Below, one piece after another: positions 6,297 through 55,116 of a stretch of 64,000 bases of DNA. The translations under genes were made by a program, and so were the position numbers. The notes under the pieces are model-generated. The model worked only from the letters and a program-made list of their open reading frames with translations. It did not search any database and had not been told where the DNA came from. This DNA is from Methanotrichaceae archaeon (GTDB lineage: Archaea > Halobacteriota > Methanosarcinia > Methanotrichales > Methanotrichaceae). Location of the stretch: contig CAWEXU010000004.1 in NCBI GenBank assembly GCA_963813075.1, forward strand, positions 64,001-128,000, in the 5' to 3' direction. Every line of letters starts with the position of its first letter. The first letter of the stretch is position 1.

Positions 6297-6707
6297 ATGA
6301 CTAAGCAAGAGCATTGGATAAGCGCAAGAGGATGCGTCTATAACGTGTATTACCACTTTGTATGGTCAACAAAGTATCGAAGGAAGGTTCTTATTGGTTC
6401 AATCGCCGAAGACCTTCATTGGTTGCATGAATTGATAGCAAAGCAGAAGGGAATTACATTGATCAATCAGGAGATCCTGCCGGATCATGTTCACCTCTTC
6501 ATGACAGCTCATCCTATATTTGCTCCTGCTAACATTGCCAAGATCTTCAAAGGCATTACGGCAAAGAAGCTCTTTGAAACGCATCCTGAACTAAGAGATC
6601 AGCTTTGGGATGGCCATCTTTGGAATCCATCTTACTATGTTGGCACTTGTGGAGATGCTACCAAGGATGTAATAGAACGATATGTAGAGATGCAAAAGGT
6701 GAAGTGA
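6297..6707 (+). CDS. tnpA: IS200-type Y1 (HUH) transposase
   Basis: YHFVWSTKYRR, DHVHLF (HUH), LWNPSYYVGT, IERYV catalytic Tyr region. Confidence 0.96.
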   Translation: MTKQEHWISARGCVYNVYYHFVWSTKYRRKVLIGSIAEDLHWLHELIAKQKGITLINQEILPDHVHLFMTAHPIFAPANIAKIFKGITAKKLFETHPELRDQLWDGHLWNPSYYVGTCGDATKDVIERYVEMQKVK

Positions 6708-6708
6708 T

Positions 6709-7809
6709 TTGCTGAAAGTGCTTCGCTATAGGATCTATCCTACAAAATCTCAGAGAACCAAGATGGCTGACACCTTGGAGCTTTGCAGATGGACCTATAA
6801 CGAAGTACTAGCCATCAGGAAGAACGCTTACGAACAAGAAGGCAAATCTCTCTCCTATTACGATACCAAGAAGCTTTTGCCAGGATGGAAAGAAGAAAAG
6901 CTCGAATTGAAAGAAGTCCATTCTCAGGTTCTACAGGAAGTCGTCAAAAGAGTTGATTTGGCCTATCAAGCCTTCTTCCGAAGAGTCGAGGCAGGAGAAA
7001 ACCCGGGATATCCCAGGTTCAAGGGCTATGGCAGGTACGATAGCTTCACCTATACTCAATCAGGCTTTTCCCTGAAACCTGGCAAACTATGGTTATCCAA
7101 GATCGGAGATATCAAGATCAAGCTTCATAGAGCTGTAGATGGAGAAATCCAGAGGCTTAATATCAGAATAATGCCTACCGGAAAATGGTTTATATCCTTC
7201 CTGGTTGAAGTTGAACCAGATGAACCTCTTCCGAATACCGGATTATCAATAGGCGTTGATGTGGGTTTGAAAAGCTTCATCACCCTATCAGATGGCGAGC
7301 AGGTAGATAATCCAAGATTTTTTGTTCATGAAGAAAATGCTCTGGCAAAGGCTCAAAGAAAGCTATCAAATGCAGAAAAAGGAACACCGGAAAGGGCTAG
7401 AGCCTTAAAAGTGGTTCATAGGGTTCATGAAAGAATTACCAACAAGAGGGATGATTTTGTTCAAAAACTCTCCATATCCCTGGTTAAATCCTATGACTTT
7501 ATAGCCTTCGAAGACTTGAATATCAATGGCATGGTCAAGAATCGTTGTCTTGCAAAGCATATATCGGATGCTGCTTGGAGCAAACTAATAACTACCACAT
7601 CTTACAAGGCAGAATGGGCCGGTAAACGTGTCGAACTAGTGAATCCCAAAAACACATCTCAAATATGCTCTGGTTGCGGTAAAGTGGTTCAAAAAGATCT
7701 ATCAGAAAGAGTCCATAGTTGTCCTTTCTGTGGTCTGACTCTGGATAGGGACCATAACGCCGCTATAAACATTCTCAGACTGGGGCTACAGTCTGTGGCG
7801 AAAGCCTAG
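6709..7809 (+). CDS. tnpB: TnpB RNA-guided endonuclease
   Basis: RIYPT N-terminus, RuvC residues GVDVG / FEDL / DRDHNAAINI, Zn finger CSGC..CPFC. Confidence 0.96.
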   Translation: MLKVLRYRIYPTKSQRTKMADTLELCRWTYNEVLAIRKNAYEQEGKSLSYYDTKKLLPGWKEEKLELKEVHSQVLQEVVKRVDLAYQAFFRRVEAGENPGYPRFKGYGRYDSFTYTQSGFSLKPGKLWLSKIGDIKIKLHRAVDGEIQRLNIRIMPTGKWFISFLVEVEPDEPLPNTGLSIGVDVGLKSFITLSDGEQVDNPRFFVHEENALAKAQRKLSNAEKGTPERARALKVVHRVHERITNKRDDFVQKLSISLVKSYDFIAFEDLNINGMVKNRCLAKHISDAAWSKLITTTSYKAEWAGKRVELVNPKNTSQICSGCGKVVQKDLSERVHSCPFCGLTLDRDHNAAINILRLGLQSVAKA

Positions 7810-19536: not shown

Positions 19537-20322
19537 TCAGTCCAGCCTCCTGCTCTTTTTCAGCCCGCCCTCCACTGCCTCTCTGATGATATAGCCGCCC
19601 ACATGCAGCACGGTGTCTCCTAGTTCATTGTCTCTTTCCATGGAGCCGGTGCAGGGATAGGAATGATGGGCCTCGGATATCCTCTCTCTGATGTCCGGCT
19701 GATCGGGCTCCAGGCCCAGCATCTTCTTGGCCACAAACCAGGTCGAGCCGCAGGGAGCGCTTCGCACGACATTGGCCCCCATGATCACATCCTTTCCCTC
19801 TCTGCTGCCCTGGACGGTGAACTCTATCAACGGATCGCCAATTCTTGCTTCCTTCAGGAACTGAGCGATGATGGGCTTGGAGGGATCCGGCCGCAGGGCG
19901 CAGAAGGGCTTGGCAAAGGCCGCCTCCATCCCCAGCTCTGCTGCCTTATCCTCCACCTGCTTTCTCTGCCCCAGCGGCATCTCCTTGGGCGACTCCGATC
20001 CGCCTATAATCGCTTTGACCCCCGCTTCTTTGAACTTGGGCAGCAGGCCGTAGAGAATATCGGGATGGACATTGATCACGATGATGATATCCGCCTTCGG
20101 TATATCCTGCGGAAGCAAGGGCTCCACATCATCTATGAAATCCCCGTACGTCGAAGGATCGGGCATCTCCACCAGGGCCACAATATCCTTGGCCAGGTCC
20201 GGGGCAACATTCCGGCATTCGGTGCAGGCATCTGCGCAGGAGATGCAGAACCCGGAGAAGTTTACCAGGTTGCCCACCACTCTAGCGCCGAATTCGCCGC
20301 TATAATATACCGCCAGCTTCAT
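19537..20322 (-). CDS. DUF166-like conserved archaeal protein
   Basis: PFC.L, VVRSAPCGSTWFVA, HHSYPCTGSM motifs; N-terminal Cys cluster. Confidence 0.75.
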   Translation of the reverse strand: MKLAVYYSGEFGARVVGNLVNFSGFCISCADACTECRNVAPDLAKDIVALVEMPDPSTYGDFIDDVEPLLPQDIPKADIIIVINVHPDILYGLLPKFKEAGVKAIIGGSESPKEMPLGQRKQVEDKAAELGMEAAFAKPFCALRPDPSKPIIAQFLKEARIGDPLIEFTVQGSREGKDVIMGANVVRSAPCGSTWFVAKKMLGLEPDQPDIRERISEAHHSYPCTGSMERDNELGDTVLHVGGYIIREAVEGGLKKSRRLD

Positions 20323-21101
20323 CTTCTCACCATTTCTTTATCCTTGACTACCTTCCCGTCGATCATGCATATGAACTGATCGAGGGGGATATTCTTTCCC
20401 GATCTTTTCAAAGCCTCTTCGACCAGATTCATAAGATGAGAGCAGCAGGGAACCTCCATCCTGAGGACGGTTATGTCCCGGATCTCATTTGACTTGAGAA
20501 TCTCCGCCAATTTAGAGACGAAGGACTCGCCTGGGTCAAGCTTGGGGCAGCCGATGAGAACCACCCTCTTCCGGATGAACTCGGAGATGACCGGGCAGGC
20601 AAATGCCGAGCAGTCGGCAGCTATCAGCAGACTGGCGTCCTTGAAGTATGGTGCATCGGTGTGGGCCAGCCGCATCTGCACCGGCCAGCTGGAGAGCTGG
20701 GAGGAGGGGCCGAGCTTCTTCAGGTGCTGTCCCGGTCCCTCGCCTCTTCCCATCTGCGAAGCCTGTGGTCGGTGAATTGGGAGGGTCGCAGGGGGCTACT
20801 GGCCCCGATTCGCTCCCTCCTCTTCCGCCTTCTTCCCGGCGGGGCTGCTTCTCTCTGCTTTTGATTGCTGCTGCTCGGCTGCTGCCTTCTCATCGAAGGC
20901 TTCCGCCTCTCTTCGCTCTATGGTCAAAGCCCCGGTGGGACACTCGCCAATGCAGGCCCCCAGGCCGTCGCAAAACGATTCCCTAACCACCCGCGCTTTG
21001 CCGTCCTTCATTTCTATCGCGCCCTCTGAGCAGGCGATAACGCAGCTGCCGCAGCCATTGCAGAGGGACTCATCGATCTTGATGATATTTCTCTTTACCA
21101 T
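20319..21101 (-). CDS. 4Fe-4S ferredoxin-domain protein of the hcp cluster, frameshifted ~20790
   Basis: CNGCGSC..C and CDGLGACIGECP in 20796..21101; SQLSSWPVQ, ADC, GCPKLD, MEVPCC in 20319..20753. Confidence 0.82.
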
Positions 21102-21129
21102 TCCAACTCCCGATCAACAAATCCGAGAT

Positions 21130-22443
21130 CTACTCAGCCATCATCCTCTTGATATCCTCATCCGGGGTGCTGATCAGCCGGATGTCGTACTGGTCCACCA
21201 GGATCTTGAGCATATCATCATTGATCCATCCGGGGACGATGGGGCCCAACCAGATCCCTTTGATTCCCAATGCCAATAAGGACCAGAGAATGGCCACTGC
21301 CTTCTGCTCCATCCAGCTTACCACCAGGGTCAGGGGCAGGTCATTAACTCCCACTCCGAACAGGTCAGCCAGAGCTCCGGCCACCTCCAGGGCGACGATG
21401 GCATCGTTGCACTGGCCCAGGTCGATCAGGCGGGGAATGCCCTCGATATCCCCCAGATCCAGGTCATTGAAGCGGAACTTGCCGCAGGCTAAGGTGAGGA
21501 CCACTACGTCTTTGGGCAGCTTTTGCACGAACTCCCGGTAGTAGTCGGACTTCTTCAGGGGGGCATCGCAGCCTCCTACCAGGAAGAACCTCTTGATCTT
21601 GCCCTTCTCCACCAGCTCCTTGATCTTGGCGGCGTGCGAGAGCAGGACGGAGGTGGAAAAGCCGGTGGTCAGCTCATACTCTCCCGGAGCGTCTGGGAGC
21701 TCGGGCAGCTCTCGCGCTTTGGCTATCACCTCGGAGTAGTCGTATCCATCGATGTGCTTTACCCCTGGCAGGTAGACCGGCCCGGTGGAGAACATGCGGT
21801 CGATGTACTCCTCACGCGGAGGAAGGAAGCAGTTGGAGGTGCCGAATAGGGCCATGGGATACTGGGCGAAGAGCTTCTTTTGGTCAAACCAGGCTTTGCC
21901 CAGGTTGCCGGCCAGGTTCTTGTATTTCCGCAAGCCCGGATAGCCGTGGGCGGGGAGCATCTCCGAATGGGTGTAGACGAAGACATTCGTTCCCTCCACC
22001 TGCTGCAAGAGCTTATCCAGGGCGTTCATATCGTGGCCGGTGACCAGGATGCCGTGGCCCTTGACCGTTCCCGTCCTCACCTTGGTGGGCGTGGGCTCGC
22101 CGAACTTCTCGATGTGCGCCTTCTTGAGAAGCTTCATGGTCCGGATATTCATCTCCCCTGCTTTCACCGCTAAATTGAGGAACTCCGCGGGGTCGAAGTT
22201 CACATTGGTCAGGGTGGAGAAGAAACCCTTCTCTATGAATGCGTCCACCTCTGGATCAGTATAGCCCAGCTCCCGGGCATGATAGAGATAGGCGCTGATG
22301 CCCTTGATGGCGAAGAGCAGGTTATCCTGCAGCCGGGCGACGATCGGTTCCTTTCCACATACTCCCTTCATTGTGCAGCCGGTGCCCCGAGCGGTCTGGG
22401 AGCACTGGTAGCAGAACATGTCCAGTTTCTCAGTAGCTGCCAT
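21130..22443 (-). CDS. hcp: Hybrid-cluster protein (hydroxylamine reductase), short form
   Basis: [11 protein letters not shown]...[37 protein letters not shown]. Confidence 0.95.
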
Positions 22444-22464
22444 TTTTTATTTCCTCACAACCAG

Positions 22465-22487
22465 TATACTAATGATACCAAAGTATA
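22465..22487. promoter_or_regulatory. Inverted repeat TATACT-N11-AGTATA, probable operator
   Basis: Lies in the 72-bp gap between divergent hcp and the HxlR-family regulator. Confidence 0.55.
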
Positions 22488-22515
22488 TAACCTCGAACGT
22501 TTCCCTGAGTATACC

Positions 22516-22875
22516 ATGCAGGAAGGATGCACAGTAAACCAGACTGTGAAGTATATTGCCAGGAAATGGACCATGCTCATACTGCTGGAGCTGTACAAGG
22601 GAGAGGGGCACACCAGGCGGTTCTCTGAATTGAAGGCCTGCCTGGCAGGGATCACCCAGAAGATCCTATCCGTTCGGCTCAAGGAGCTGGAGCGAGAGGG
22701 GCTGGTGGAGAAGAAGATGGACAGCGCGGCCTTTCCCCTGAAGAGCGAGTACACCCTCACCGAGAGCGGCCTGGAGATGATCGAGGTCATCAAGAGCATA
22801 AAGCTGTGGGCCCTGCGCTGGAAGATAAAGAACATCGAGTGCGGCAGCCAGGATTGCGGGCAGTGCGTTCTGTGA
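22516..22875 (+). CDS. HxlR-family winged-helix regulator
   Basis: CTV...IARKWTMLIL, RRFSELK..L.GITQKILSVRLKELEREGLV, EYTLTESG. Confidence 0.9.
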   Translation: MQEGCTVNQTVKYIARKWTMLILLELYKGEGHTRRFSELKACLAGITQKILSVRLKELEREGLVEKKMDSAAFPLKSEYTLTESGLEMIEVIKSIKLWALRWKIKNIECGSQDCGQCVL

Positions 22876-23137
22876 GCTGCTGGGCTGTCCTGGGCGGGCT
22901 CAGTCGATCTTGACGGCAGCGAGTCTCTCTGGGATGAGACCTGAACTGCTCAATTTTAGTGATTGGGCTGGCACTAATTGGCAGATCATATTCGTCCTAA
23001 TAAATTCTCAGTACGGTTATTCCTGGGCAAGGACAAGGCTTTCATATGGACTCTCGTGCCGCGGGTCAAGTTCCTGGCAGCAAAAAAAATCTATTACCCT
23101 ATTCTACAGATAGTGATATTGAGAATGACGACAAAGG

Positions 23138-23275
23138 ATTTCTTAAGGAAAAAGCAGCAAAGAAAGGAATGGAGACGGCATTGCTGAGCGAATCTGTTTT
23201 GGCACGGGAATGGCTAGCCCAGAGGAGGACGAAGCTTGGAAGGATTTGTGAGAGGAGATGTGGTTGTCCTGCCTA
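23138..23275 (+). pseudogene. Decayed antitoxin C-terminus plus first codons of a PemK/MazF toxin
   Basis: FLKEKAAKKGMETALLSESVLAREWL/EEDEAWKDL* overlapping (L)EGFVRGDVVVLP, then homology is lost. Confidence 0.6.
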
Positions 23276-23498
23276 CTGCTAATTTTGCCATAGAAAGCTG
23301 CATCCAGACCTGAGTCCATCAAAGGTCAGGATCCGAGCATTCTCCCCCTCGTCCGCGCATGCCTTCGTACTCTCGCCCGTCCCCCCCTTTGCATTCGCTC
23401 AGGCGCACTGCATGCAGAAAAGCAATCCTTGAGAGATCAGCCAGAATGCGGTCAGAAGGCTTATATTGCTGTCCCACAATAATTTTGCGAGGCTTTTG

Positions 23499-23911
23499 AT
23501 GGACCTATCAGTAATTGCAGCGATGGCTTCCTCAGTGGTGGCTCCATACCTGGCTAAAGGAGGCGAAGCTTTTGCCAGCGAATTTGGCAAGAGCGCAGGC
23601 CAAAAGATTGTCGAGCTTGCAGATCTTGTCAAGAGCAGATTTAAGGGGGATAAAGATGCGGAGGCCATTTTCAGTCTGGCGGAAAAGGATCCTCAATCCA
23701 GGGCACGCGTGGCCTCGCTGGAGGAGGAGATAGGCAAGAAGATGAAGGAGGATCCCGATTTCGCCCGGAAGCTCGGCGCATTGATGGAGGAGGTACAAGA
23801 GACGAATCGGGAAAGGTCGTCATAAATGCGTTTTATCGAAGTGTAGCAGCGCAAAATATCACCGGAAGCACAATTTCCACCGGAGACTCCAATCCCTCCA
23901 GAGAAGATTAG
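23499..23911 (+). CDS. Small helical Bell/HeLo-like effector with C-terminal amyloid-like motif (1-nt frameshift ~23810)
   Basis: MDLSVIAAMASSVVAPYLAKGGEAFASEFGK...; adding one G to the run at 23809-23811 extends it to ...KVVINAFYRSVAAQNITGSTISTGDSNPSRED*. Confidence 0.75.
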
Positions 23912-23928
23912 CTGGCCGAGAACAGACA

Positions 23929-26900
23929 GTGACCTTCAGCCAAATAGAGCCTAAACGGAGCAGTGTGAACGAAAAGATAGAGGCCTCAGATCGCAGCGTA
24001 GCCGCATCTGAGATCATCAAGAGCATTATTACCACAGGCAATAACAGCCCTGTCTTCCTGGGCTACGAGCGGCTGCGAGACGCAGTTATCCAGCCCAGAT
24101 GAGGTCTTCAGGCGGGTTCACATCGAGTCTTTTGTGGGCCGCAGGTGGCTGATAGATCAGGTCGATTCCATTCTAAATGATGAGAATAACAGTTGCGGCT
24201 ATCTGGTGCTGGAGGCCCATGCCGGTCTTGGCAAGACTGCTTTTTTGGCCTGGCTGGTAAAAGAGCGAAACTATATTCACCACTTCGTCGAGCTGGCCCC
24301 GGGACAGGAGGGAATTGAAAAGGGCCTGAAGAACCTGGCCGCCCAGATCATCCTGGCGTATAAGCTCAGTGCAGATGAGGCGATACCAGATGCTGCTGGC
24401 AGACCTGATTATCTATACCGGCTGCTCTCCCAGGCAGCTGAGAAGCGAGGTCCAGGCGAGAGGATAGTGGTTGTGGTGGATGCCCTGGACGAGGCTGGCA
24501 CCCCGCCCAACCAGAACGTTCTAGGCCTGCCAAAAGTCCTGCCGGAGGGCGTGTTCTTCATCGTCTCCATGCGGCCGGTGCAGGTCACACTGCAGTCTGA
24601 CAGATCCATAACTCCCCGCTGGCCTCTGAAGATCCTCGCTGAAAGCCGTGAGAACCTGGATGACATGAAGAGCTTTCTGCAGGCCTCCGCCGCCTGGCCA
24701 AAGGTGAAGCAGGCACTGGATGAGAGCAGATACACTGCAGATGATTTCATCGATGCTTTAATGAAGAAGTCTGGAGGACTGTGGATCTATCTGCATTTTG
24801 TGATTCCAGAGATAGAGCGGGGGGAGAGATCGCCACTGGATCTGGATAAGCTTCCAGAAGGGCTGCAGGAGTACTATGCAGGTTACTGGGATCGATGGCG
24901 CAAAGCCGATAAATGGTATGAACTTTACCTGCCGATTCTTACCACGCTGGCCGCAGCCCAGGAGCCCAGCACGCTGGAGCGCATTCTGGATTGGGCAGGG
25001 ATAGTGGCTCCATGATGATGAAAAACAAAAATTGAGGAGAATTCTGAAGGAAGAGTGGCGTCCATTCCTGGCCATCTCTGGTGAGGGGAAGGAAGAGAAG
25101 TATCGTTTCTATCATGCCACAGTCAGAGAGTTCTTCGAGGGAAAGGTAAAACAGAACAGTCCTATGGCGACGGAAAATGATTTGATTATATGAGCTTTCC
25201 CAAGCTACTAAAGAACGGCACAGGATGATAGCAGAGCGCTATCTTGCTCGCTGGGGTGGTCTGGAGAAGGGGCTGCCAGATCTGGTGAATAAAAGAGATG
25301 AAGACGACGGCTATGGCCTGCGCCACCTGGCCGCCCACCTGGAAGCCTCAGGGCAGGATGATGAGCTTCATCGACTGTTGAAGCTGGAAACCAGCCAAGG
25401 AAGAAACCTCTGGTATGAGGCTAAGGAGGCTGGAGGCGATACGACTGGCTACATCAACGACGTCATGAGAGCCTGGCGGTTGGCTCGGGTGGGATATGAT
25501 CGAAAAGATATAAAGAGAACTGGCAAGCTCATCGCTCTTCAAAACAGGTATGCATTGATCTTTACGTCCATCAACAGCCTCTCGGGCAACATCCCATCTG
25601 AGCTTCTGCTGGCCCTGGTGGAAAACGACATCTGGTCTAAAGAGGAAGGACTGGCTCATGCCAGACATGTTCCGGATCCGTCCAAACGGTCGCGAGTTCT
25701 TGCAGAGTTATCATCACTAATGAATGAGCCCAAATTTATGGATGAAGCCCTCTTGAGGCCCAAGAGATCCAGAATTTGGAGGATTCTGCGGAACTCTAGC
25801 CGAGATTGTTCCTAAAATTCAGGACATAAATGACGGGCTGGCGATGGCCCGAGAAATCGATGGATGATTATTGCCGGGCCATAGCTCTAGCAGAGATTTC
25901 CCTTAGACTTCCGGAAGATCAGAAGATAAAGATCCTGGATGAGGCGCTGTTGAATGCCCGAGAAAGCAAGGATTGTTTTGGGCGCGCAGAAGATTCTTAT
26001 TGGCGTGCCATAGCTCTGGCTGAGATTGCCCCCAGACTTCCGGACGCTCAAAAGACAAAGATCCTGGATGAGGCGTTGTCAGCGGCCCAAGAAATCGTGG
26101 ATGACTGGTCACGAGCCATAGCTCTGTTTGAGATTGCTCGCAAACTTCAGGGTATAGATAAAGCGTTGGAGATAGCCCTAGAAATCCAGGATGATTATCG
26201 GCGTGCCATAGCTCTAGCTAAGATTGCTCCCAGACTTCCGGACGCTCAAAAGACAGAGATACTGATGGAGGCGTTTTTGGCAGCACTAGAAATCAAAGCC
26301 GATCGTTCGCGAGCCATAGTCATGGCCGAGATCGTTCCCAAACTTCACGATATAAATGATGCGCTGTCGATAGCCCGAGAAATCCAAGATGGTTATGGGC
26401 GTGCTAAAGTTCTGGCCGAGATTGCTCCCAGACTTCCGGACGCACAAAAGACAGAAGTACTGATGGAGGCGTTATCAGCAACCCGAGAAATCCAGGATGA
26501 TCAATCTCAAGCTATAGCTCAGGGAATGATTGGTTCCAAACTTAAGAATGCTGATGAAGCGCTGGCAATAGCCCAAATAATCCCAGGAATGATTATCGAC
26601 GTGACATAGTTCTGGCTGAGATTGCTCCCAGACTTCAGGGTATAGATGAAGCGTTGGAGATAGCCCTAAAAATCCAGGATGATTATCGGCGTGCCATAGC
26701 TCTAGCTAAGATTGCTCCCAGACTTCCTGATGCTCAAAAGACAAAGATCCTGGATGAAGCGTTGTCAGCGGCCCGAAAAATCAAGGGTGATTATTGGCGT
26801 GCTGAAGCTTTGGTCGAGATCGCTTCCAGACTTCCGGACGCCCAAAAAATAAAGATCCGGGAGGAAGCTTTGTCAGCAACCAATAAGATTCGTGATCCAC

Positions 26901-27125
26901 CTCGGTCTGCCATTGTGATACTTCCAACTGAAGAAGAAGCTGAAGAAGAGTCTATTTATTTATCCCATGGGCGCTTACTATCTGCGATCTATCAACTATG
27001 AAGCAGATCAGATTTTCTATCTGACCTGTCGTCTTTAGCCACCTCTAGTGGCCAGGCTGGGCGGCGATGAGGCATTGCTGGAGACAATACAGGCTATAAA
27101 AGACGTGGGAAGATGGTGGCCTTAA
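23929..27125 (+). CDS. NLR-like STAND/NACHT-type ATPase with N-terminal amyloid-like motif and C-terminal helical repeats; multiply frameshifted (errors or pseudogene)
   Basis: FVGRRW, Walker A AHAGLGKT, Walker B VVVVDALDE, LPEGL..YY, YRFYHATVREF, RAIALAEIAPRLP repeats, terminal DVGRWWP*. Pieces: 23929-24102, 24098-25015, ~25011-25193, 25225-25815, 25830-26609, 26654-27001, ~26990-27125. Confidence 0.8.
25860..26880 (+). repeat. Coding tandem repeats of about 30 and 36 aa
   Basis: Recurrent gccatagctct(a/g)gc..agattgctcccagacttccggacgc; segments ~26144-26260 and ~26632-26748 are nearly identical. Confidence 0.9.
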
Positions 27126-27365
27126 TTCTTGCCCAATATCTTCCTGACGGGGCTTTCTCTCTGTAATGCCCCCTTCTCAGATCCTTCTATCCTTCGATCT
27201 ATTGGCTGCAAGCAATATCCTGCGCCCTTTTTTTTGGGTATTCCCGCGAGTCGGCCTGCGGCCTCCCGCGCTAGCAGTCTGGCCCACTCCAGGCCGTGGC
27301 GGCCCCCCTGACCCCGCGTCCGCGGGGGACAAACTAAGAGACTTTGCCTTTTATTCTTATACGTA

Positions 27366-27697
27366 TTATTGAGATCGCAAGGATGAAATATCCTGTGGGC
27401 CAAACATCTCCCTTAATCTTCTTTGAACTTCCTCTAAGAGGTCATGATCGATCTCGCCAAACTCCCCTTCTAAGAGAGACTTATCCAGAGTTGCCAGTTT
27501 GTTCAACTTTATTACCGAATCTCTCTTCAATCCCGATCTCCTGAAGGTGGGCATCTGTCTGGCCAGAGGGACATCCTCAAGGATGCACGTTGATCTTTGA
27601 AGAATGAACGAAATAACATCGTCATGCTCATAGATCAAGACAGGCCTCACGCCTGGATCGTGAATGGAAAAGGAACGGCAACGATCTTGCCTATCAT
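27366..27697 (-). pseudogene. PemK/MazF-family toxin with disrupted N-terminus
   Basis: MIGKIVAVPFPFT..* then RPVLI...SGLKRDSVIKLNKLATLDKSLLEGEFGEI. Confidence 0.75.
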
Positions 27698-27813
27698 TTG
27701 TATCTGACTTTCAGGTCCTTAAGCGAGTAGATATCTGGCTCGTCTTCCAAGAACTTCTTCAAAGAGATCTCTTCCAGCTTCATTATCGCTGCCATTTCTT
27801 CTTCATCCGTCAT
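27694..27813 (-). CDS. Short antitoxin (or remnant) upstream of PemK toxin
   Basis: MTDEEEMAAIMKLEEISLKKFLEDEPDIYSLKDLKVRYK*, ATGA overlap with the toxin start. Confidence 0.6.
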   Translation of the reverse strand: MTDEEEMAAIMKLEEISLKKFLEDEPDIYSLKDLKVRYK

Positions 27814-28043
27814 ATCGCCTTCAAAGATGGTTATCCGGATCGATCCTGGAAAGCGACTGCATGGGCCTGTGGGCAACTGACGATCTGTCGGCTCGGGCGA
27901 TCTCCTCTGCGCCTTCTGCTAAATGGTTTTTCGTTTTTGCTTTTGATGTCCTCTTCATCCTGGCAGCCATTGGCGTTTTCATCTTGCATCTGCTAAATAC
28001 CTTTGGCAAGATCCAGCACATCATCTTCTGGATCGCCCTCCCC

Positions 28044-29412
28044 TCACCCCCTCAGCTCTCCTCTGGCCAATGAGAATACGGTGCCCACCAGGCACAGCCC
28101 GGCAAAGACCGCGAAGGCCATCTGGATGCTGCTCATGAGCATATCGATATTCTCGGGCGCGATCTCTACGTGGCCCATGATAATAGAGAAGATGAGCATG
28201 GCAACTCCCAGGCTGAGCGACTGGCCGATCAGCCGCATGGTGCTCACCATCCCCGATGCCACCCCGTAGTCCGCCGGGTGAACAGCGCTCATGATGGCAT
28301 TGGTGTTGGGCGAGGCAAAGAGGGCAAACCCCACGCCCATCAGGACCAGCCCTGCCAGGATGATCTCCAGAGGGGTCTGGGGAAGAAGACGGGCGAAGAG
28401 AGCCAGGCCCAGGACGCACAGCCCCATGCCAAGAGAGGCCACGATCCTGGGCTCAATGCTGTCCGAGAGCCTTCCCGCCAGGGGGGAGAGGGCGGTCTGC
28501 ACCGCCGGCTGGGCGATCAATATCAGGCCGGCTGCCTCCGGGCCGAAGCCCTTCAGATACTGCAGGTAAAGGCTGAGGAGAAATGCCACTGCTGCTGTGG
28601 CGCTGTAGTTGATCAGAGCGGCCAGATTCGAGAAGAGGAAGACCACATTATTGCGAAATAGGTCTCACCTTCAGCACCGGATTGGCGTTGCCGCTCTCCC
28701 AGCGGAAAAAGAGGATCATAGTCGCCCCGGAAAATAGAAGCAGTACGGCTCCCATTCTATCGGGAATGAGGGTCAGGCCATAGATGAGGGAAGAGAGCAT
28801 GGCAGTATAGAGCAGCGTTCCCGCAATGTCGAAGCTTTTCCCATTCTCCCCCTTCCACTCCCCCTTGATCTTCCACCTGGCGATGACCAGGGCCAGCAGG
28901 GAATAGACGGCAACGGCAAGATAGATGAACCTCCAGCCGGCGTATGCCGTGATGACTCCGCCCAGCAATGGTCCAGTGGAGAGGCCCAGGTATGCTGCCG
29001 CCACGTTGATCCCCAGCACCCGTCCCCTTTCCCGCAGGGGGAAGACGGAGGCGAGGATGGCAATGGAGGTGCCGAAGATCATGGCGCTGCCCACTCCCTC
29101 CACCATTCGGGAGGCGATGAGCATGTGCACCCCGGTGGAGATGCTGCAGAGCAGGGAGGATACGATGACCACCACCAGGCCCGCCAGAAAGACCCTTCGC
29201 CTGCCGTAGATATCGGCTATTCTGCCGAAAGGGACAATGAAAATGGCTGCCGAGAGCAGAAATGCGGTGACGATCCAGCCCAGGAGAGACTGATCAGGAA
29301 TGGAAAATTCGCTGTTGATGGCGGGAAGGGCAACGGTCACGGATGAGGTGAGAAAGGGGGTGATGAAGGAGGACATGCAGGCAGCAACCAGCACAGCCAT
29401 CTTGTCGTTCAT
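28044..29412 (-). CDS. MFS transporter (DHA2/EmrB-like), frameshifted ~28665
   Basis: GRIADIYGRRRVF motif A, ERGRVLG, WRFIY; removing one base gives LKVDLFRNNVVFLFSNL. Confidence 0.9.
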
Positions 29413-29552
29413 GGTAGGGCTGAGGTGGGCGGCATATGTTCATAAAGCCATCCCGATCCCTTGAATCCGATGCTCCTAATCCAGCCGATGAAAAAGAAAG
29501 CTGATCTTGATCCGGGTCATCGATCAAGCCAAAAGCTATCCTTGAGCCTCTC

Positions 29553-29810
29553 TCAGCCTCTTCCTTCCAGGATCTCCAGCCTCCTCTCCAAAGATCTGGT
29601 CCTCTCCATCAATTCGTTCAGCAGACCCTCAAGACGGGCGATCCTCTCCTCGTCCTGAGCAATCATTATCGGCCTGTTCAAAAGCTCCTCTTTATAATCC
29701 TCTAAAATCGGATTGTCCGAGTCTCGCAGAATTCCTCTCTTCCCTTCCTTCTCAAGCATTGCAAATGCACCTCCGGAGGGCAAATCATCAACTTGCCTTG
29801 AAGTAATCAT
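29553..29810 (-). CDS. Small coiled-coil hypothetical protein
   Basis: Heptad-like RIARLEGLLNELMERTRSLERRLEILE; start may be downstream. Confidence 0.55.
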   Translation of the reverse strand: MITSRQVDDLPSGGAFAMLEKEGKRGILRDSDNPILEDYKEELLNRPIMIAQDEERIARLEGLLNELMERTRSLERRLEILEGRG

Positions 29811-29846
29811 ATAGACGTTCTGCGAATATGCATCTTGCCCTCCGAT

Positions 29847-30998
29847 CTATCCCTTCTCATAGATCTTCTCTGCCATGTCGCAGATCCTCTCCCAGTCGTA
29901 GCCCCGTGCCAAATGCCGGCAGGGCGCACGCATCCTGCTGCTCTCTTGAAGAGCCAAAAGGAGCCCTTCTGCCAGATCCTCGGGCGCAGGCGGGCAGATG
30001 ATCCCGGTATTCTCTGTGACCAGATCCATCACCGCATTCATCCGGTGCTCGACCGTCACCACCGGCAGGCCGCAGGCATTGGCATCCAGGGCGGCCATGC
30101 CGAATCCCTCTCTGGTGGAGGGGGAGGCGAAGGCGCGGGAGGACTTCATCAGGGCCAGAGCATCATCATAGTTCTCCAAAAATCCGGAGAACTCGATATT
30201 TTTCTCCAGCCCCAGTTTCCCGGTAAGGGCTCTCAGCCTCTCTTTCTCCGGCCCGTCGCCGATGATCACCGCCCGCACATCCGGCAGATCTGACCTCATT
30301 ATGCCCACCGCCTGGATGAGGAGGTCGATGTTCTTATGGGCGGCCAGCCTCCCGGCAAAAACGATATCATACTGCTTCGGGGAGGGCGCTATCCCCTCGA
30401 TCTTCTGCCAGTCGAGGCCGTTGGGCACCACCTGCACCCCACTTGCACCCAGGCTCTCCAGGTCCCTGGCCGTCCTCCTGGATACTGCCAGGTTGCGATC
30501 GGTCAGCCGGGCAGCGACAAGTTCAGTGATCCGGCCCATCTCTCCCTTCCTTCCCAGGTACTGGTGCCAGTAGTCACCCCAGACCTCATGCCAGGTGATA
30601 AAGAGCTTCTGAGGCTCATGGTTTCTCTGCTTATTCCATCTGCTCGATAGATGTGCGGAAAAGCAGGACAGATATGGAAAGTTCTGGCAGTCGACCACCG
30701 CCTCTCTGGAAGGATGAGCGAGCAGACCGGCGGCGAAATAGACCGCCTCTCTGATCGATCTCTTCCCATTGACATAAAGGGGCCTGGGCGGGCATATGCC
30801 ATGAAGGCGAACCCCCTCTCTTTCAATCTCGTCCTCTCCCGGCCACCATTTCATGCCGTAGCAGTGGACGGCGTGCCCCCGCCCCGCCAGCCTGCGGGAG
30901 AGCTCATAAATCCTCTTCTCCGCTCCCCCTTTGACCCAGGGATAGACCGCATCGTACACATAGGCGATCTCCACCTCATTCGCCGTCCTGGTGCCCAT
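29847..30998 (-). CDS. Glycosyltransferase family 4
   Basis: [40 protein letters not shown]. Confidence 0.92.
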
Positions 30999-32109
30999 GG
31001 TAAAGCAATAGCAGGCTGATGAACATCCCCGAGAATATGGTCTGAATTCCAAGAATGATGAGGATCATGGCCACCATGGCGTTCTGGGCGGCGTCTAATG
31101 CCCCAAATCCCGCTCCCTTCCACCTTATCAGAACCCCGAGACCGATGACGATTCCCGCTGCCAGCAGAGCCAGCCCGATTAAAAGCTCCTTTTCCAGGGA
31201 ATGGTAGCTGATCAGCTTTTTCATTCCGCTCGACCTGGACAGGCCCCAGGCAGCCCCAAAAGCTCTGAAATGCAGCCCGGCAAGAAGCATCTGATAGCCG
31301 ATGATCAGAAGCAATCCCCCCAGGATCAGGGAATGCATCCTCGAGCCCCCCTCCAGATAAACCGCCACTGCCAGGACCAGGCCGAAGAGGAGGGCCACAC
31401 CACCCGGGACGAGCAGAAAGGGCCCCGGCCGGTAGAGCATCATGAACCGCATATGCCTCCAGCCATCGGTGAACGAATTCAGCTTGGAGCTCCCCTGGCG
31501 GGGATAGTAGTTGATGGGGACCTCAGCAATCCTCAGACCGCGGGATGCAGCCTCGATCACCATCTCCGAGGCGAACTCCATCCCTCCTGACCTGAGGTTC
31601 AGCTTATTCAGAGCATCGCGGGTCATGCCGCGCAGACCGCAATGGGCATCGGAGATCCCGGCGGAGAAGAGCCGGTTTAAAATCCAGGTCAAAATGGGGT
31701 TTCCCACATAACGGTGAAGGGCGGGCATCGCCCCGGGGATTATCCTGCCCTTCAGCCTCGATCCCATGACCATGTCATACTCGCCCGTCTCCAGGCAGGG
31801 CAGCATATCCAAAATGGCCTCCGGGTCATAGGTGAGGTCCCCGTCCATGAGAAAGATATAGTCCCCCTGAGCCTCCTGGAAACCCAATAGATATGCATTG
31901 CCATACCCCAGCCTCTGGGGGAATACAACCCGAGCCCCGCAGGAGGCAGCTATATCCGCCGTCTGGTCGGTGGAGCTGTCAGCGACAATTATCTCTCCCT
32001 CCAGGCCCGCCTTCTTGAAGACCTCCTGAGCTTTATGGATGCACTGGCATATGGTTTCCGACTCGTTTCTGGTGGGGATGATCAGGCTTATCCGGGGCAC
32101 AATTTCCAT
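30976..32109 (-). CDS. Glycosyltransferase family 2 (DPM1-like) with C-terminal TM helices
   Basis: [36 protein letters not shown]. Confidence 0.92.
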
Positions 32110-40703: not shown

Positions 40704-41041
40704 CTCCCTTTGGAGGAAAGCTTCGGTCTTCTTTATTTTTTCACCTTAGATTGTATTTATTTATTCTGTTAATCTTCATATCAATATTAAGGCACGCATA
40801 TTATACCATTAACATTCTAAAGAAATAGAAGAATTTATATGGCCGGACAGTTTATAGTGATGTAGTATGTTGCAGCAGAACGAACGGTTGCAAGGATGAC
40901 ATGATATGTTGTTTGATGCCGATCTTATGGCAGGCGAGAATATAGCATTCCTCAAAGAGATGGCATTATTCAAACATGTCACCCATCTTGAGCCCGGCAT
41001 AAGATTCCTTGTTCGTTTGCATCCTGGGGGGGGAGGTCGAT

Positions 41042-44000
41042 ATGGATTCAAGCTCTGAGAGCGTCGTCTCCTCCCTTGGCTCTTTCGCTGAGATGCTCTC
41101 AGACCCGGAGGGGTACGATCCGGAGAGGCTGAAGAGCCTATCGTTTGCCGTTCCATCTCTCCTGTCCTCTTTCATCGAGGCCATGCTCTCCTCCGATGAG
41201 GATGTCATGAAAGAGCGGCTCGGAGACCTGGAGGATTATGCCACCCAGGTCAACAGCGTCCAGGCCTGGTTCAATCTGGGAAGGCTTGCTCATCGTCTAT
41301 TCTTTCATCAGGCGGCCATTGAATACTATCGCAATGCTTTCGATCTGGCCGAAATCCAGGGAGATGATTCCCTGGCCAGGATCCTATTATGTCAGGGGAA
41401 CCTGTACGGAGAGGAGGAGGACTGGCCACGGGCCTGCCAGTGCTATGAGTTGGCCCTGACGGCCATAGATGCGATCAAGAGGCCAGTTCTATTGCCAACA
41501 GTTCTGGATAGCCTGGGTCGAGCCTACCGGCAGCAGGGTGATTACCATCAAGCCCGGATGTGCTATGCCCGCATCCTGGAGATCCTGGACTCAAAGGACA
41601 GAGAGGGAAGGATAGAGGCCACAGGCAACCTGGCAGAGCTGTGTCAGATCCAGGGCGATATGGAACGGGCAGAGGAACTTTATCAGATATGCCTGAAGGA
41701 GAGGGAGCGGTCGCACGACCCGGCGGGAGCGGCATCCGCTCTTGCCTCCCTCGCCACCATCTACTGGCAGACCGGCAAGGGCAAGAGGGCCGAGATTTGC
41801 CTCCAATCCGCCAGCCATATGCTGATTGATCTGGGAGAGCACACCGGGGCAGCGGAGATGCAGAGCCGGCTTGCGGATATATATTTTCAGGAAGGCAGAT
41901 TCAAGGACGCTCTGGAGCTCTATTCTAAGAGCATCGCCGTTTTGCGGAAAGGCAATCCTCCTCTGGCCTCTCAGGTCCTCTGCCATATGAGTCAATGCTT
42001 CCTGGAAGAAGGGGATTGGATCCAGGCCGAAGACCATCTGCAAAGGGCAATAGCTCTCATGGAGGAGCATGGCGATTCCCCCTCTCGCGGCCGGGCTCTT
42101 ATCCTCCTGGCGGGCATTCACCATAAGCAGGGGCTGCTGGAAGAGGCCCTGCAGTGCTCCTGTGAGAGCCTGAAGATCAGGGAGAGAGCCAGGGATTGGA
42201 GCGGATCTGCCGAAGCCCTGAACCGCATGGCCAGGATCTGCAGCGACCGCTCAGACTGGCCGGAGGCGATCGAGTATTACCAGAGGGCAGCAGACCTTTT
42301 TATGGAAAACGGGGAGGACGCCTCCGCCGCCGAGGCCCTGTCCAATCTGGGGGGAGTGTATCAGCTGAAAGGAGATCTGGACGTGGCCCTGGAGCTGCAC
42401 TGCCAGGCCATTGAGATCTTCTGCCGGCTGGGAGAGAGACAGGGGGCCTCCGTGGCCCAGTCAAACATCGGCCTGGTCTATCAGAGCAAGGGAGATCTGT
42501 GCCTTGCCCAGGAGTTCTTCGAGAAGAGCATCGCCACCAAAGAGGAGCTGGGAGACGATCTGGGCATTGCTGGCACCAGGCTGAATCTAGGCCAGGTCCT
42601 TCAGCTCCGGGGAGATTGGGACCGGGCCCAATCCTGTTTTGAGGAATCGGCCAGGGCATTTGAGAATCATGGAGACCTGCAGGGTCTGGCGGCAGCAGAG
42701 AACAACCTGGGAAACCTCTGCCTGGACCGGTCCGATCCCATGCATGCCATCTTATGGTACCGTCTGAGCCTGGAGGCCAGGGTTGCCCTGGATGACAAGC
42801 ACGGCATGGCCACGACCCTGGGAAACCTGGCAGGGGTCTATCTCCAGACCAAAGACGGGGAGAGGGCGGCGGAGCTGTACCGGCAAAGCCTGGAGTCATT
42901 CAGAGAGGTGGGGGATGCTTATGGTGAGGCCAGATCGCTCTACGGCCTGGGAAGATGTCTGGCCGAAATAGGCGATCTGGAGGGGGCCGGAGAATGCTAC
43001 CGGGACTGTCTGGAGCAGCAGATCGAGAGGGAGGATTCCCGTTCTATGATCGAGGTGCTCGAGTCACTGGTGCAGCTGATACTGCGAAAAGGGGGATGGC
43101 AGGAGGCCCAGGCCAGGTACACTCAGGTGCTGGAGGCATTTCGCTCCAGGGATGACCCTCAGGCCGTGGCTGCGGTCCTGTGCTCTCTGGGAAATCTTCA
43201 TGCCGATCTCGGCCAGTGGGATGAGGCCACAAAGGACTACAATGAGAGCCTGGCGATCATGGAGGGGCTGGGGGACCAATACTCCGTTTCCGTAGCCAGG
43301 AACAACCTGGGCAATATCTGCTACCGTCGAGGTGACTGGGCTGCTGCCCTGGAGAATTATCGCCTGAGCCTGGAGGGCTTCGGCAGAGCAGGTGACCTGA
43401 TGAGCGAGGCCTCGGTTCTGAGCAATATGGCCAGCCTCTGCTATAAGAGAGGCCAGTGGCCCGAGGCTCGGGATAGCTATAACAAGAGCCTGAGCCTCTT
43501 TGAAAAACTGGAGGACTCAGCCGGCGTGGCCCGAGTGCTGGAAAATCTGGGAAACCTCTACCACCGCCAAGGAGAGCGCGATCTTGCGGCAGAGCACTTC
43601 CAAAGGGGCCTGAAGATCTGCAGACGCCTGGGTGACCAGGAGGGAGCAGCACAGATGCAGTCCAGCTTGGATATGATCCGGGAAAGCCTGGGCATATCTC
43701 CCGATATCGAGGATTACAGGAGCCAGCTGAAAGAGCTCGAGCAGGAAGGCGATATCTCCGGCCAGGGGGAGGTCCTCTCTGCTCTCGCCGGCTGTTATGC
43801 AGATCAGGGACTGTGGAACGAGGCCATCTCCTGCTACCAGAAGAGTCTGGAGCGGTTTGATGAGTGCGGAGAGATCTATAACTCCGGCCAGGTCCTCTTC
43901 AATACCGCCCTGGTCAATAAAGATATGGGTGACCTTGGCCGGGCCAAGTCCCTGCTTGAGGGGGCCTTAAACATTTTCCAGATGCTGGGTGCCCTGCCCT

Positions 44001-50479: not shown

Positions 50480-50499
50480 GGGAGAAGGAGGATATAAAA

Positions 50500-51063: not shown

Positions 51064-51102
51064 AATTTATCTCATAACAATAGAAACAGAAGAGGTGTAT
51101 TA

Positions 51103-52509: not shown

Positions 52510-52541
52510 GCAGATCCAAATCTATGAGAGGGTGTTAAACT

Positions 52542-52712: not shown

Positions 52713-52795
52713 AGTACCGCCTTTTTCTCCCTTTTTTGGGAGATGCGGTTTTCTGCGAGTACAGTTATCTGATCAAAAAGTGAGGGAGAGATATT

Positions 52796-52972: not shown

Positions 52973-52985
52973 GGAAGGCTAGACT

Positions 52986-53747: not shown

Positions 53748-53758
53748 GGGTGATTCGA

Positions 53759-55111: not shown

Positions 55112-55116
55112 GGAAA

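Follow-up and report, generated by a model that had tools for sequence, protein, structure and literature searches.

A probable amyloid-signalling pair of Bell-domain effector and NLR, with BASS6-type motifs, in a Methanothrix-type methanogen

Introduction

Do two adjacent genes of a methanogenic archaeon, neither of which reads through in one frame as assembled, form an amyloid-signalling pair, and are they still genes or the remains of genes? Templating of an amyloid fold from an NLR to a separate pore-former is a link among fungal, animal and bacterial cell-death immunity, and the archaeal examples so far have been catalogued, with one peptide tested in vitro. The locus considered here occupies 23499..27125 on the plus strand (~3.63 kb) of the window, by which we mean the whole 64,000-nucleotide stretch of a Methanotrichaceae genome that was analysed. 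It contains an effector gene, a 53-nt spacer and an NLR-like gene in collinear order, and we consider it likely that the two genes constitute a Bell-domain/BASS6/NLR amyloid-signalling pair in a Methanothrix-type methanogen.

The pair is one more case of a kind of gene pair already described in bacteria and Methanothrix, and the window adds little to that record: one further pair from Methanothrix, of BASS6 type, whose copy here reads as broken. The Dyrka et al. 2020 preprint has already published Bell domains and motif pairs of Methanothrix, and the initial annotation of this DNA was right that such motifs had been noted in the genus. Its description of the system as 'hidden' does not stand, as the motif of an orthologue is already in the published BASS data set. 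Its further phrase, 'functionally uncharacterised', is half right: the literature searched yielded no in vivo test of such a pair in any archaeon, but a related peptide and an E. coli pair have been tested.

Results

Setting of the locus

The window's copies are the genome's sole effector and sole NTPase of their respective families. When the DNA of 23400-27200 was searched in 31 genomes (30 relatives and the genome itself), it matched only itself and a 110-nt segment in G005 (window 27017-27126, 83% identity), the only part that matches another genome of the genus; there is thus no orthologous DNA for a comparison at species level. A tRNA search of 20000-31000 found none, which makes an argument from an integration site impossible.

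A candidate Bell-type effector

Tblastn of P0004, an intact orthologue of 137 aa, together with alignments A1 and A2, places the Bell-type effector gene at 23499..23911 (plus strand). The first 102 residues of P0004 align with 23499-23804, and residues 103-137 continue in a different frame over 23804-23908. The predicted product has ~137 aa, against 135-139 aa in its orthologues; across the wider family, intact members range from 135 to 149 aa and end in the motif. Its N-terminus, MDLSVIAAMASSVVAPYL (MDLSVIAAMA...), forms hydrophobic helix 1 and is acidic at position 2. The Dyrka 2020 preprint and Ibarlosa 2024 describe the Bell/Hell hallmark as just such an N-terminal hydrophobic helix, with an MD or MEP start ('MEPIS'-like) that puts an acidic residue second or third. 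The family comprises 28 proteins at E<=0.01 among 45 candidates, is present in 25 of the 58 other genomes of the genus and extends to 2462 cluster representatives at E<=1e-3; D or E stands at position 2-3 in 109 of the 149 representatives listed (of 2462).

The helical Bell-like domain (23499..23803, plus strand) is supported by an AlphaFold2 model of P0004 built with alignment A2 and by a BLASTP match between P0004 and the L006 locus effector. In the model, five helices can be distinguished (3-29, 31-48, 52-63, 68-84 and 86-101; pLDDT 78.5, pTM 0.70). The L006 effector, which is 34% identical to P0004 (E 1e-25), adjoins an ORF whose N-terminus is, letter for letter, the published M. soehngenii NLR peptide; because this neighbour carries the exact AEB69175.1 peptide, the L006 effector is presumably the published AEB69174.1. 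The effector family combines small size and a helical fold, the acidic hydrophobic helix 1 and homology to a published Bell member. By analogy, the domain would act as a membrane-targeting executioner of cell death.

Fold searches with the model, in line with the comparison to HeLo, MLKL and Bell folds that the initial annotation had proposed, brought nothing above noise. Foldseek against the PDB gave 0 matches at E<=0.001, and the best VIA-align score against 48,161 chains was Z 5.3, to a dynein segment, which is in the noise range for helical bundles. The scores for the ZAR1 coiled-coil (4.2), the death-like domain 8ss1 (3.6) and NINJ2 (3.6) are likewise noise-level, so neither HeLo nor MLKL nor Bab is tied to the effector by its fold. 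When the effector profile was run against PDB sequences, the best match was a designed cage at E 0.019. PADLOC has no family for the effector, and the Pfam release searched, which holds no Bell model, gave nothing above cut-off for eight ORF pieces and six intact effectors. Precomputed PF20701 flags on some effector matches were not reproduced by the Pfam scan and were set aside.

Could the small protein instead be a death-like adaptor of the bDLD type, recruiting another effector? Such domains are helical adaptors in the STAND systems of multicellular prokaryotes (Kaur 2021), and the effector's best Pfam match is to bDLD2, at E 0.13, far below cut-off; the Z of 3.6 to bacterial 8ss1 points the same way. 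Yet both matches are noise-level, with the ZAR1 coiled-coil and unrelated helical proteins scoring higher, and bDLD2 matched in 0/6 intact orthologues scanned. Moreover, the MD/MEP hydrophobic helix is a Bell/Hell hallmark, and the published Bell alignment contains a M. soehngenii protein (Dyrka 2020). We therefore regard an adaptor as very improbable and keep to a putative Bell-type executioner.

An NLR-like STAND gene

Tblastn of P0031, P0033, P0034 and P0035 outlines an NLR-like STAND NTPase gene at 23965..27125 (plus strand) that probably begins with the GTG at 23965 and spans ~1,050 codons. On the same strand, the translated NTPase module (24131..25136) includes FVGRRWL (24131-24151), Walker A GLGKT (24224-24238), Walker B VVVVDALDEAG (24467-24499) and a winged-helix-like YRFYHATVREFF (25101-25136). 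Pfam matches to the module all fall below the curated cut-offs (AAA_16 E 7.9e-6, NACHT E 1.9e-4, NPHP3_N E 3.3e-4), and the NTPase thus appears weakly NACHT-like. In PADLOC, orthologue P0033 matches STAND_TPR (E 1.7e-11) and Avs2 (E 1.4e-4), and the NLR orthologues also give a match to Avs1b (E 8.7e-8); together with the two Walker motifs, these matches mark a P-loop NTPase of the STAND class.

The C-terminal part (25857..26968, plus strand) is a helical repeat region of 66-aa units such as RAIALAEIAPRLPDAQKTKILDEAL. Tandem Repeats Finder reports a period of 198 nt (66 aa) with 3.2 copies and 77% matches over 25997-26636, and more arrays to 26877; this periodicity is that of a C-terminal superstructure-forming repeat domain, whose Pfam match, TPR_30 (E 6.2e-4), is below cut-off. 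The gene closes with a conserved 26-aa tail and stop codon (27045..27125, plus strand); by tblastn the tail shares 96% of its residues with the C-terminus of P0034 and 63% with that of P0035. All the elements that the initial annotation had ascribed to this gene (Walker A and B, a YH winged-helix motif and helical repeats) were located. Among 8,000 candidates scored, 308 are NLR homologues at E<=1e-5. The N-termini of homologues P0031-P0079 carry mostly short motifs or effector-type domains (DUF4062, EAD1) at the same position, and the precomputed Pfam list of the homologues includes trypsin-like peptidase and caspase families.

Paired motifs of the BASS6 type

The frame opened at 23750 ends in ESGKVVINAFYRSVAAQNITGSTISTGDSNPSRED and a stop codon and forms the effector tail; the frame at 23929 ends in NEKIEASDRSVAASEIIKSIITTGNNSPVFLGYERLRDAVIQPR and a stop codon and forms the NLR head. 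Within them lie the effector-side motif RSVAAQNITGSTISTGD (23837..23887, in the wider stretch of 23822-23893 given by the initial annotation) and the NLR-side motif RSVAASEIIKSIITTGN (23992..24042), both on the plus strand, the latter also found at the N-termini of P0031 and P0032. As first annotated, the tail and the head align without gaps, with RSVAAxxIxxSxIxTG[DN] common to both and 10/19 identical residues from RSV to TG[DN]. A loose regular expression applied to six frames of the 2,710,643-base genome matched at these two places only. The same motif joins effector C-terminus and adjacent NLR N-terminus in L018, L021 and L022, and the proposed architecture, in which a small helical effector ends in the motif and the STAND/NLR protein encoded next begins with its match, is borne out by intact orthologues with both motifs (effectors P0004-P0027; NLRs P0031 and P0032; pairs L018 and L021).

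The motif appears to belong to BASS6, an assignment made for the effector side through a near-identical listed member and for the NLR side by eye. The listed member is ETESGKVVINASHRSVAAQNITGSTISTGHS (A0A0W8FAR7, C09_s028) in the PMC8086366 supplementary data, whose README equates C09 with BASS6; the window's 29-residue tail (ESGKVV...TGDS) is identical to it at 26/29 positions, and the exact ETESGKVVINASHRSVAAQNITGSTISTGHS string is encoded in L022. The motifs had been labelled BASS3-like on the strength of an RSVA...TGD consensus ascribed to BASS3, which is mistaken. BASS3, which is RHIM-like, is marked by a central G-phi-Q-phi-G common to RHIM and PP, as in the published VDLRDAKGVQVGDGNVQINRF, and this signature is absent from both RSVAAQNITGSTISTGD and RSVAASEIIKSIITTGN.

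Cognate motifs co-vary, as the initial annotation suggested checking. Over the best 15-residue ungapped window, the 15 parsed cognate pairs share 7-12 identities (mean 10.1), compared with a mean of 8.3 for 122 non-cognate pairs of the same class and a mean of 4.5 (maximum 6) for 88 cross-class pairs. Part of the similarity is nevertheless family scaffold, because SIITTGNNSPVF, which makes up the latter half of the match on the NLR side, is retained in NLRs carrying the other motif as well.

In another explanation, the shared stretch serves as a plain homotypic contact, or as a linker conserved at the N-termini of this NLR family, and the effector merely docks on it. SIITTGNNSPVF/SIINTGDHNQFF is conserved at the NLR N-terminus of many homologues, including those whose cognate motif is of the QTNIAG type; AlphaFold renders the effector tail of P0004 as a low-confidence helix; and the families put to experiment in the available text of the Dyrka studies are BASS1 and BASS3, not BASS6. 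Docking does not, however, account well for the better match of cognate than of same-class non-cognate pairs, or for the N-terminal half of the motif (RSVAA..I), which is swapped along with the effector tail (see below). In addition, the motif's length (~20 residues) and its abundance of G, N, S, T, V and I agree with published descriptions of BASS motifs, and related motif families yielded prions and fibrils (Dyrka). We judge docking without templating improbable. By analogy with the characterized systems, the window motifs would be expected to form amyloid and to template one another.

Relation to known systems and a proposed mechanism

The closest parallels are the Bell/BASS/NLR pairs of filamentous bacteria, among them BASS6 (Dyrka 2020; Dyrka 2021 data set). 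As described there, these also combine an effector of 120-140 aa, with a ~100-aa helical domain and a ~20-25-residue C-terminal motif, and an NLR that is encoded collinearly by the neighbouring gene and begins with that motif. The motif form [GDH]RS[VI]A..........[ST]GD is shared, and a metagenome orthologue is listed in BASS6. In contrast to the bacterial pairs, the window pair has an archaeal host, an NTPase with sub-cut-off Pfam matches that looks only weakly like NACHT, repeats of 66-aa helical units instead of classical TPR or WD, and a copy that reads as broken.

Within the genus, the M. soehngenii pair AEB69174.1/AEB69175.1 has the same effector family and adjacent effector and NLR genes with paired motifs. 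Its Bell domain is in Fig. 1C of Dyrka 2020, and its NLR-side peptide, of the other motif type, formed amyloid-like aggregates in vitro (Dyrka 2021). However, its motif is FDQRGQ..Q.N.AG, described as 'resembling BASS3', and its NLR, an NB-ARC/TPR protein (Pfam NB-ARC E 2.2e-10), falls outside the window's NTPase family.

More distant systems were compared partly by description. In HET-S/NWD2 of Podospora anserina, compared by description only, an NLR N-terminal motif likewise templates the C-terminal motif of a pore-forming helical effector encoded by the neighbouring gene, but the host is eukaryotic, the effector domain is HeLo, and HRAM and BASS6 are unrelated in sequence. Bab/Agp (BASS11) of E. 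coli, for which abortive-infection phage defence and cell death with membrane alteration have experimental proof (Ibarlosa et al. 2024 preprint), also pairs a small Bell-related helical effector bearing a C-terminal amyloid motif with an adjacent sensor bearing the same motif N-terminally; its effector domain, as described there, is shorter (~80 aa, 'Babybell') and its motif is of another family. The antiphage STAND NTPases (Avs, bNACHT) share the P-loop STAND core and C-terminal repeats. By contrast, they carry their own effector domain in the same polypeptide, where the window NLR has a ~25-residue motif and its effector is encoded separately.

On the model of HET-S/NWD2, Bab/Agp and those BASS1 and BASS3 pairs that have been put to the test, we propose the following sequence of events. 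First, the NLR repeats would sense a trigger, probably a virus. Next, the NTPase would oligomerize and bring the N-terminal motifs together into an amyloid fold, on which the effector tail could be templated in turn. Helix 1 might then be released from the Bell domain, leading to membrane damage and cell death (abortive infection). Such a mechanism would require the effector and NLR motifs to match, consistent with their being exchanged jointly as one cassette in natural populations.

Frame breaks: assembly error or decay

The locus contains 11 frame breaks in 3.63 kb, one in the effector and ten in the NLR. The effector break is at ~23803, where the window is one base short relative to its two nearest relatives, L021 and L022. 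The NLR, relative to intact relatives, changes frame at 24097, 25012, 25190, ~25753, ~25786, ~25856, 26586 (2 nt), 26967, 27001 and 27045, and as assembled has no uninterrupted frame. The initial count of one 1-nt indel in each gene therefore suffices for the effector but not for the NLR. Across the ~1,050 codons of the NLR segments there is no in-frame stop and no nonsense substitution.

Frameshifts are widespread in this assembly. They affect 19/119 conserved genes, which contain 23 frame switches in total (~1 per 6.4 kb), 21/23 of them a net gain of one base, and at this rate any 'pseudogene' call in this genome needs read-level support. Because so many conserved genes are also frameshifted and the locus lacks nonsense substitutions, we favor assembly indel errors as the somewhat likelier source of the 11 breaks over true decay.

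It is nonetheless quite conceivable, if less probable, that this is a real pseudogene pair in a lineage that lost the immune module, with the 11 indels as true mutations. The break density is 19x the assembly average (11 breaks versus 0.56 expected; Poisson P 2.7e-11 under a uniform rate), and the mix of six net +1 to five net -1/+2 changes departs from the assembly-wide +1 signature of 21:2 (Fisher P 0.024). Damage also recurs among relatives and neighbours. L022 has other lesions, namely effector frameshifts and a ~267-bp NLR deletion whose joint, 24394->24662, is also present in contigs of runs X1 and X2; the L021 NLR diverges after ~130 aa; the P0034 N-terminus is out of frame; the G046 effector, a possible further case, gave two matches on one contig (profile positions 24-138 and 1-37); and at the window locus the adjoining MFS gene is split and a MazF-like gene truncated. 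Against decay, the switches in the 19 frameshifted conserved genes are themselves clustered: a row of five neighbouring genes on C30 has six of them and a single gene on C12 has three. Clusters of indel errors thus do occur in this assembly. Moreover, general indel-to-substitution ratios suggest that neutral decay with ten indels should have left several nonsense substitutions in ~1,050 codons, where there are zero, and repeats and strain diversity at the locus are conditions that favour consensus errors.

Contigs from four other studies (runs X1-X4) bear on individual breaks, with thinly covered parts of the stretch left out of interpretation. The indels at 24097/99, 25012/13, 26967 and 27001 are missing from the contigs of 4/4 runs, and those at 23802, 26586 and 27045 from the contigs of 3/4, in favour of the error reading; the breaks at 25190, ~25753, ~25786 and ~25856 are not among the indels listed for these contigs. 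In run X4 the extra base at 23802 occurs in none of a depth of 14.2, which counts against the error reading. A search of sequencing runs for the source reads gave a best share of words of 0.43. Programmed frameshifting was dropped, given 11 breaks of mixed sign and intact alleles in other samples.

Joint exchange of the two motifs

Comparison with loci L015, L016, L017 and L024 and with the run contigs defines an exchangeable cassette of ~255 bp at 23766..24019 (plus strand), which runs from the effector 3' end, with its last helix and its motif, through the 53-nt spacer to the motif-bearing NLR 5' end. All four loci are 93-94% identical to the window up to 23765, where the DNA of L017 ends. 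The other three have nothing that matches the window between 23765 and 24020, and resume from 24020 at 85-93%. Runs X1, X2 and X4 also have contigs whose alignment to the window stops at 23765, and X2 and X4 have contigs that are unaligned ahead of 24019. In near-identical loci, both motifs are thus swapped jointly, as one cassette across the gene boundary, and the alternative cassettes are of the BASS6 type and the BASS3-like QTNIAG type. The literature searched yielded no description of such a joint exchange.

There are several possible implications. The locus could be a live archaeal antiviral abortive-infection module whose signalling specificity is reset by recombination of the ~255-bp two-motif cassette; the exchange itself is observed, and its adaptive meaning and the antiviral role are a tentative proposal of ours that we think rather doubtful at present. 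If it were true, co-existing Methanothrix strains would have one Bell/NLR locus in different 'wirings', with BASS6-type motifs in some and BASS3-like QTNIAG-type motifs in others, and cassette exchange could insulate parallel pathways or permit the host to escape viral decoy motifs. More generally, the joint travel of the two motifs is evidence from natural populations that they must match, and the cassette variants are natural allele pairs usable for cross-seeding tests.

A Bell-type effector and a modular NLR

The locus comprises an effector gene (23499..23911, +) followed by an NLR-like STAND NTPase gene (23965..27125, +). The initial annotation, which had proposed an effector paired with a motif-matched NLR, was right about this architecture: we observe two genes, matching and co-varying motifs, a helical domain of Bell type whose first helix is hydrophobic, and a STAND core with repeats. 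The pair belongs to an already known kind of gene pair.

In the window translation, a 119-aa ORF at 23466–23825 terminates ...EEVQETNRERSS*; alignment of 24 relatives (135–149 aa) places the true start of the effector at the ATG at 23499 (MDLSVIAAMASS...). An alternative frame, open over the same place, reads ...ESGKVVINAFYRSVAAQNITGSTISTGDSNPSRED* with a stop at 23911. Intact effector relatives carry this region in a single frame (...ETESGKVVINAFYRSVAAQNIT...), and the window is one base short at ~23803 compared with the related loci L021 and L022, its two nearest DNA relatives. After a spacer of 53 nt, a frame with GTG at 23965 encodes VNEKIEASDRSVAASEIIKSIITTGNNSPVFLGYERLRDAVIQPR*; the NLR orthologues P0031 and P0032 continue ...AVIQPDEVFRRVHIESFVGRRWL, which the window encodes in the next frame, from 24098.

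The effector family contains 2462 cluster representatives at E ≤ 1e-3 (516 at E ≤ 1e-10), is mainly 130–150 aa long and was found in 25 of 58 further genomes from the genus. Among the matches listed, 109 of 149 representatives have D or E at position 2–3, and the C-terminal tails of the listed members are highly varied. When P0004, an intact orthologue, is modeled with AlphaFold2, residues 3–101 form five helices and the tail is of low confidence (pLDDT 78.5, pTM 0.70). The same features have been published for the Bell domain (Dyrka et al. 2020 preprint), and a protein from Methanothrix soehngenii is among those aligned in Fig. 1C of that work. In L006, a Methanothrix pair from the same genus, the effector is 34% identical to P0004 (E 1e-25), and the N-terminus of the NLR ORF behind it contains, letter for letter, the published peptide AEB69175.1_5_29. 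Some far larger proteins also begin with the Bell-type domain (L008 1492–3399, L007 1492–2358, P0151 and P0241), with an open frame of at least 635 aa in L008 and lengths of 458 and 1108 aa in other long relatives; they probably represent ‘all-in-one’ NLRs that incorporate the effector.

The second gene contains Walker A, Walker B and a YRFYHATVREFF segment, as well as a 198-nt repeat array. It has no Pfam match above cut-off, with AAA_16, NACHT and NPHP3_N all falling below; on its intact orthologues, PADLOC reports hits to STAND_TPR (E 1.7e-11), Avs2 and Avs1b. Among 8,000 candidates scored, 308 longer NLR homologues were found at E ≤ 1e-5. The N-termini of P0031–P0079 are mostly short motifs or, in the equivalent place, effector-type domains (DUF4062, EAD1), and a precomputed Pfam list adds trypsin-like peptidase and caspase families among the homologues. 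These variable N-termini follow the modular NLR pattern. At the other end of the gene, the last ~110 nt (27017–27126; related locus L002) encode a conserved 26-aa tail and provide the locus's only DNA match (83% identity) to another genome of the genus. Since contigs from other samples come loose before 27051 and behind 27126, this tail region looks like a further recombination module.

The paired motifs are of BASS6 type

The effector-side and NLR-side motifs align without gaps, and a loose pattern derived from them matches these two places and no others when the entire genome (2.71 Mb) is translated in all six frames; the shared motif noticed initially is therefore real rather than a chance match. 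Its initial label, BASS3-like, does not hold. What defines BASS3, the RHIM-like family, is a central G-phi-Q-phi-G (2020 preprint), a signature missing from both window motifs, and the motif of an orthologue is filed elsewhere: ETESGKVVINASHRSVAAQNITGSTISTGHS is listed as A0A0W8FAR7, C09_s028, and the accompanying README maps C09 to BASS6 (Dyrka et al. 2021, PMC8086366). From ESGK onwards, the window effector tail is identical to this entry at 26 of 29 positions, and metagenome contig L022 encodes the exact published string. Compared by eye, the NLR-side motif RSVAASEIIKSIITTGN fits further BASS6 entries shown in that data set (...ASGERSIAA..IG.A.TGD...). At the level of sequence, the supplementary data of PMC8086366 settle the motif family as BASS6. 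Because a published data set already contained the orthologue's motif, the earlier claim of a ‘hidden’ system fails.

Motif pairing is retained among homologues. We parsed 15 of 17 effector/NLR pairs tried (L028 and L037 did not parse). Four of the 15 are of BASS6 type (the window, L018, L021 and L022), and 11 carry FDQRGQ..Q.N.AG-type motifs, a type published as ‘resembling BASS3’. Scored as identities in the best 15-residue ungapped window, cognate pairs share 7–12 identities (mean 10.1), compared with a mean of 8.3 for non-cognate pairs of the same class (n = 122) and 4.5 (maximum 6) across classes (n = 88), differences that do not amount to a probability because the compared pairs share kinship.

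Both motifs move as one cassette

A motif swap within the locus is more telling for pairing than this comparison of identities. L015, L016, L017 and L024, all related loci, match the window at 93–94% DNA identity up to 23765, and L015, L016 and L024 resume matching from 24020 (85–93%); the L017 sequence ends at 23765. Between 23765 and 24020, none of the four has a DNA match to the window. In L015 and L016, where the DNA continues, this gap encodes a QTNIAG-type effector tail and, on an NLR of the same family, a head of that type as well; L024 shows just the effector-side tail. Contigs from sequencing runs of other studies come loose at the same places, behind 23765 in X1, X2 and X4 and before 24019 in X2 and X4. 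Matching flanks around a replaced interval with QTNIAG-type motifs on both sides indicate that both motifs are exchanged together, as a single ~255-bp cassette spanning the gene boundary. Downstream of the imported motif, the NLR retains SIITTGNN.PVF, apparently left over from the BASS6 half-motif. No description of such an exchange was found in the literature listings searched or in the sections of the 2020 preprint consulted, and this exchange, together with the assembly-wide frameshifts described below, is a useful addition to the known picture.

By analogy with related systems, the repeats would sense a ligand and the NTPase would oligomerize, whereupon the clustered N-terminal motifs could adopt an amyloid fold. 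This NLR-side amyloid would template the effector tail, and release of helix 1 could then damage the membrane and cause cell death. Support comes from BASS1 and BASS3, for which prion behavior and fibrils are reported (2020 preprint); from the M. soehngenii NLR-side peptide, which showed cross-beta bands in FTIR as well as Congo red binding; and from Bab/Agp, a Bell-related pair with BASS11 that provides abortive-infection defense in E. coli and alters the membrane (2024 preprint). All of this support involves motifs other than BASS6, and none of it was obtained within an archaeon.

Frame breaks in the pair

The initial annotation had counted one 1-nt indel in each gene, which understates the damage to the NLR: compared with its relatives P0034, P0033 and P0031, it has ten frame changes, making 11 breaks in 3.63 kb with the effector. 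These could be assembly errors, or the pair could be a real pseudogene in which the indels are true decay. As a reference, we took another genome of the genus, G005, and collected the ORFs of 250 aa or more from 18 of its regions. Of these 186 ORFs, 119 (148 kb in total) had a match in the window's own genome, G000, with identity ≥60% and coverage ≥70%. Frame switches occur in 19 of these 119 conserved genes, 23 switches in all or about one per 6.4 kb, a rate too high to be credible in a living methanogen. Relative to the G005 orthologues, 21 of the 23 carry a net extra base, and they are clustered: five neighboring genes on C30 contain six of them, and a single gene on C12 has three (example sites, C30:466961-473500, C12:13112-14143 and C17:82899-83736). 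Coding sequence in this assembly appears to carry clustered indel errors at about one per 6.4 kb, a rate that fits the genome's 82.8% completeness despite long contigs.

Even so, break density at the locus is 19 times the assembly average (0.56 expected; P(≥11) = 2.7e-11 under a uniform rate), and its 6 net +1 and 5 net −1/+2 breaks differ from the 21:2 of the assembly (P = 0.024). True decay also draws support from the existence of alleles decayed by other lesions (L022, whose deletion joint recurs in X1 and X2), from the split in the adjacent MFS gene and from truncation of the MazF-like gene. Against it, the roughly 1,050 codons of the NLR contain zero nonsense substitutions, and the locus is repeat-rich and strain-diverse, in an assembly whose errors cluster. 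On balance, we lean toward assembly error for most of the breaks, with real decay a serious but somewhat less probable explanation.

Contigs from four runs of other studies, none containing more than 0.43 of the sequence words, were compared at the seven break sites among the indels listed (25190 and 25753–25856 lie outside these). The window's indel is missing from all four runs at 24097/99, 25012/13, 26967 and 27001, and from three of four at 23802 (X4: 0 of depth 14.2), 26586 and 27045. Intact alleles therefore exist in other samples; the source organism's own state is not read from these contigs. L022 (contig LNQE01001407.1, 4440–5760) encodes the exact BASS6 string yet is decayed, with its effector spread over three frames and an NLR deletion of ~267 bp (window 24394–24662) whose joint is identical in X1 and X2 contigs.

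Genomic surroundings

Behind the NLR, a PemK/MazF-like toxin fragment at 27369–27650 (−) covers only profile positions 51–109 of 109; the 60-aa ORF upstream of it (27694–27876, −) could be its antitoxin, and together with the NLR pair these look like a small variable island. The MFS transporter at 28044–29412 (−) consists of two adjoining ORFs (254 and 200 aa), one base apart in different frames, both matching Pfam MFS_1. Elsewhere in the window, an IS200/IS605 element at 6297–7809 (+) encodes a Y1 transposase (136 aa) and then a 366-aa protein of OrfB/TnpB type whose TNB domain is Cas12f1-like. At 41009–44897 (+), a protein of 1136 aa contains 14 TPR_12 stretches, and the ORF behind it, a TPR ORF of 212 aa, overlaps it in a different frame; a frameshift may have divided a single longer gene into these two. 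The CO dehydrogenase/acetyl-CoA synthase cluster at 48062–56532 (+), comprising Prismane/CODH, CdhC, two CdhD and a CooC-like ATPase, reads intact and fits an acetoclastic methanogen.
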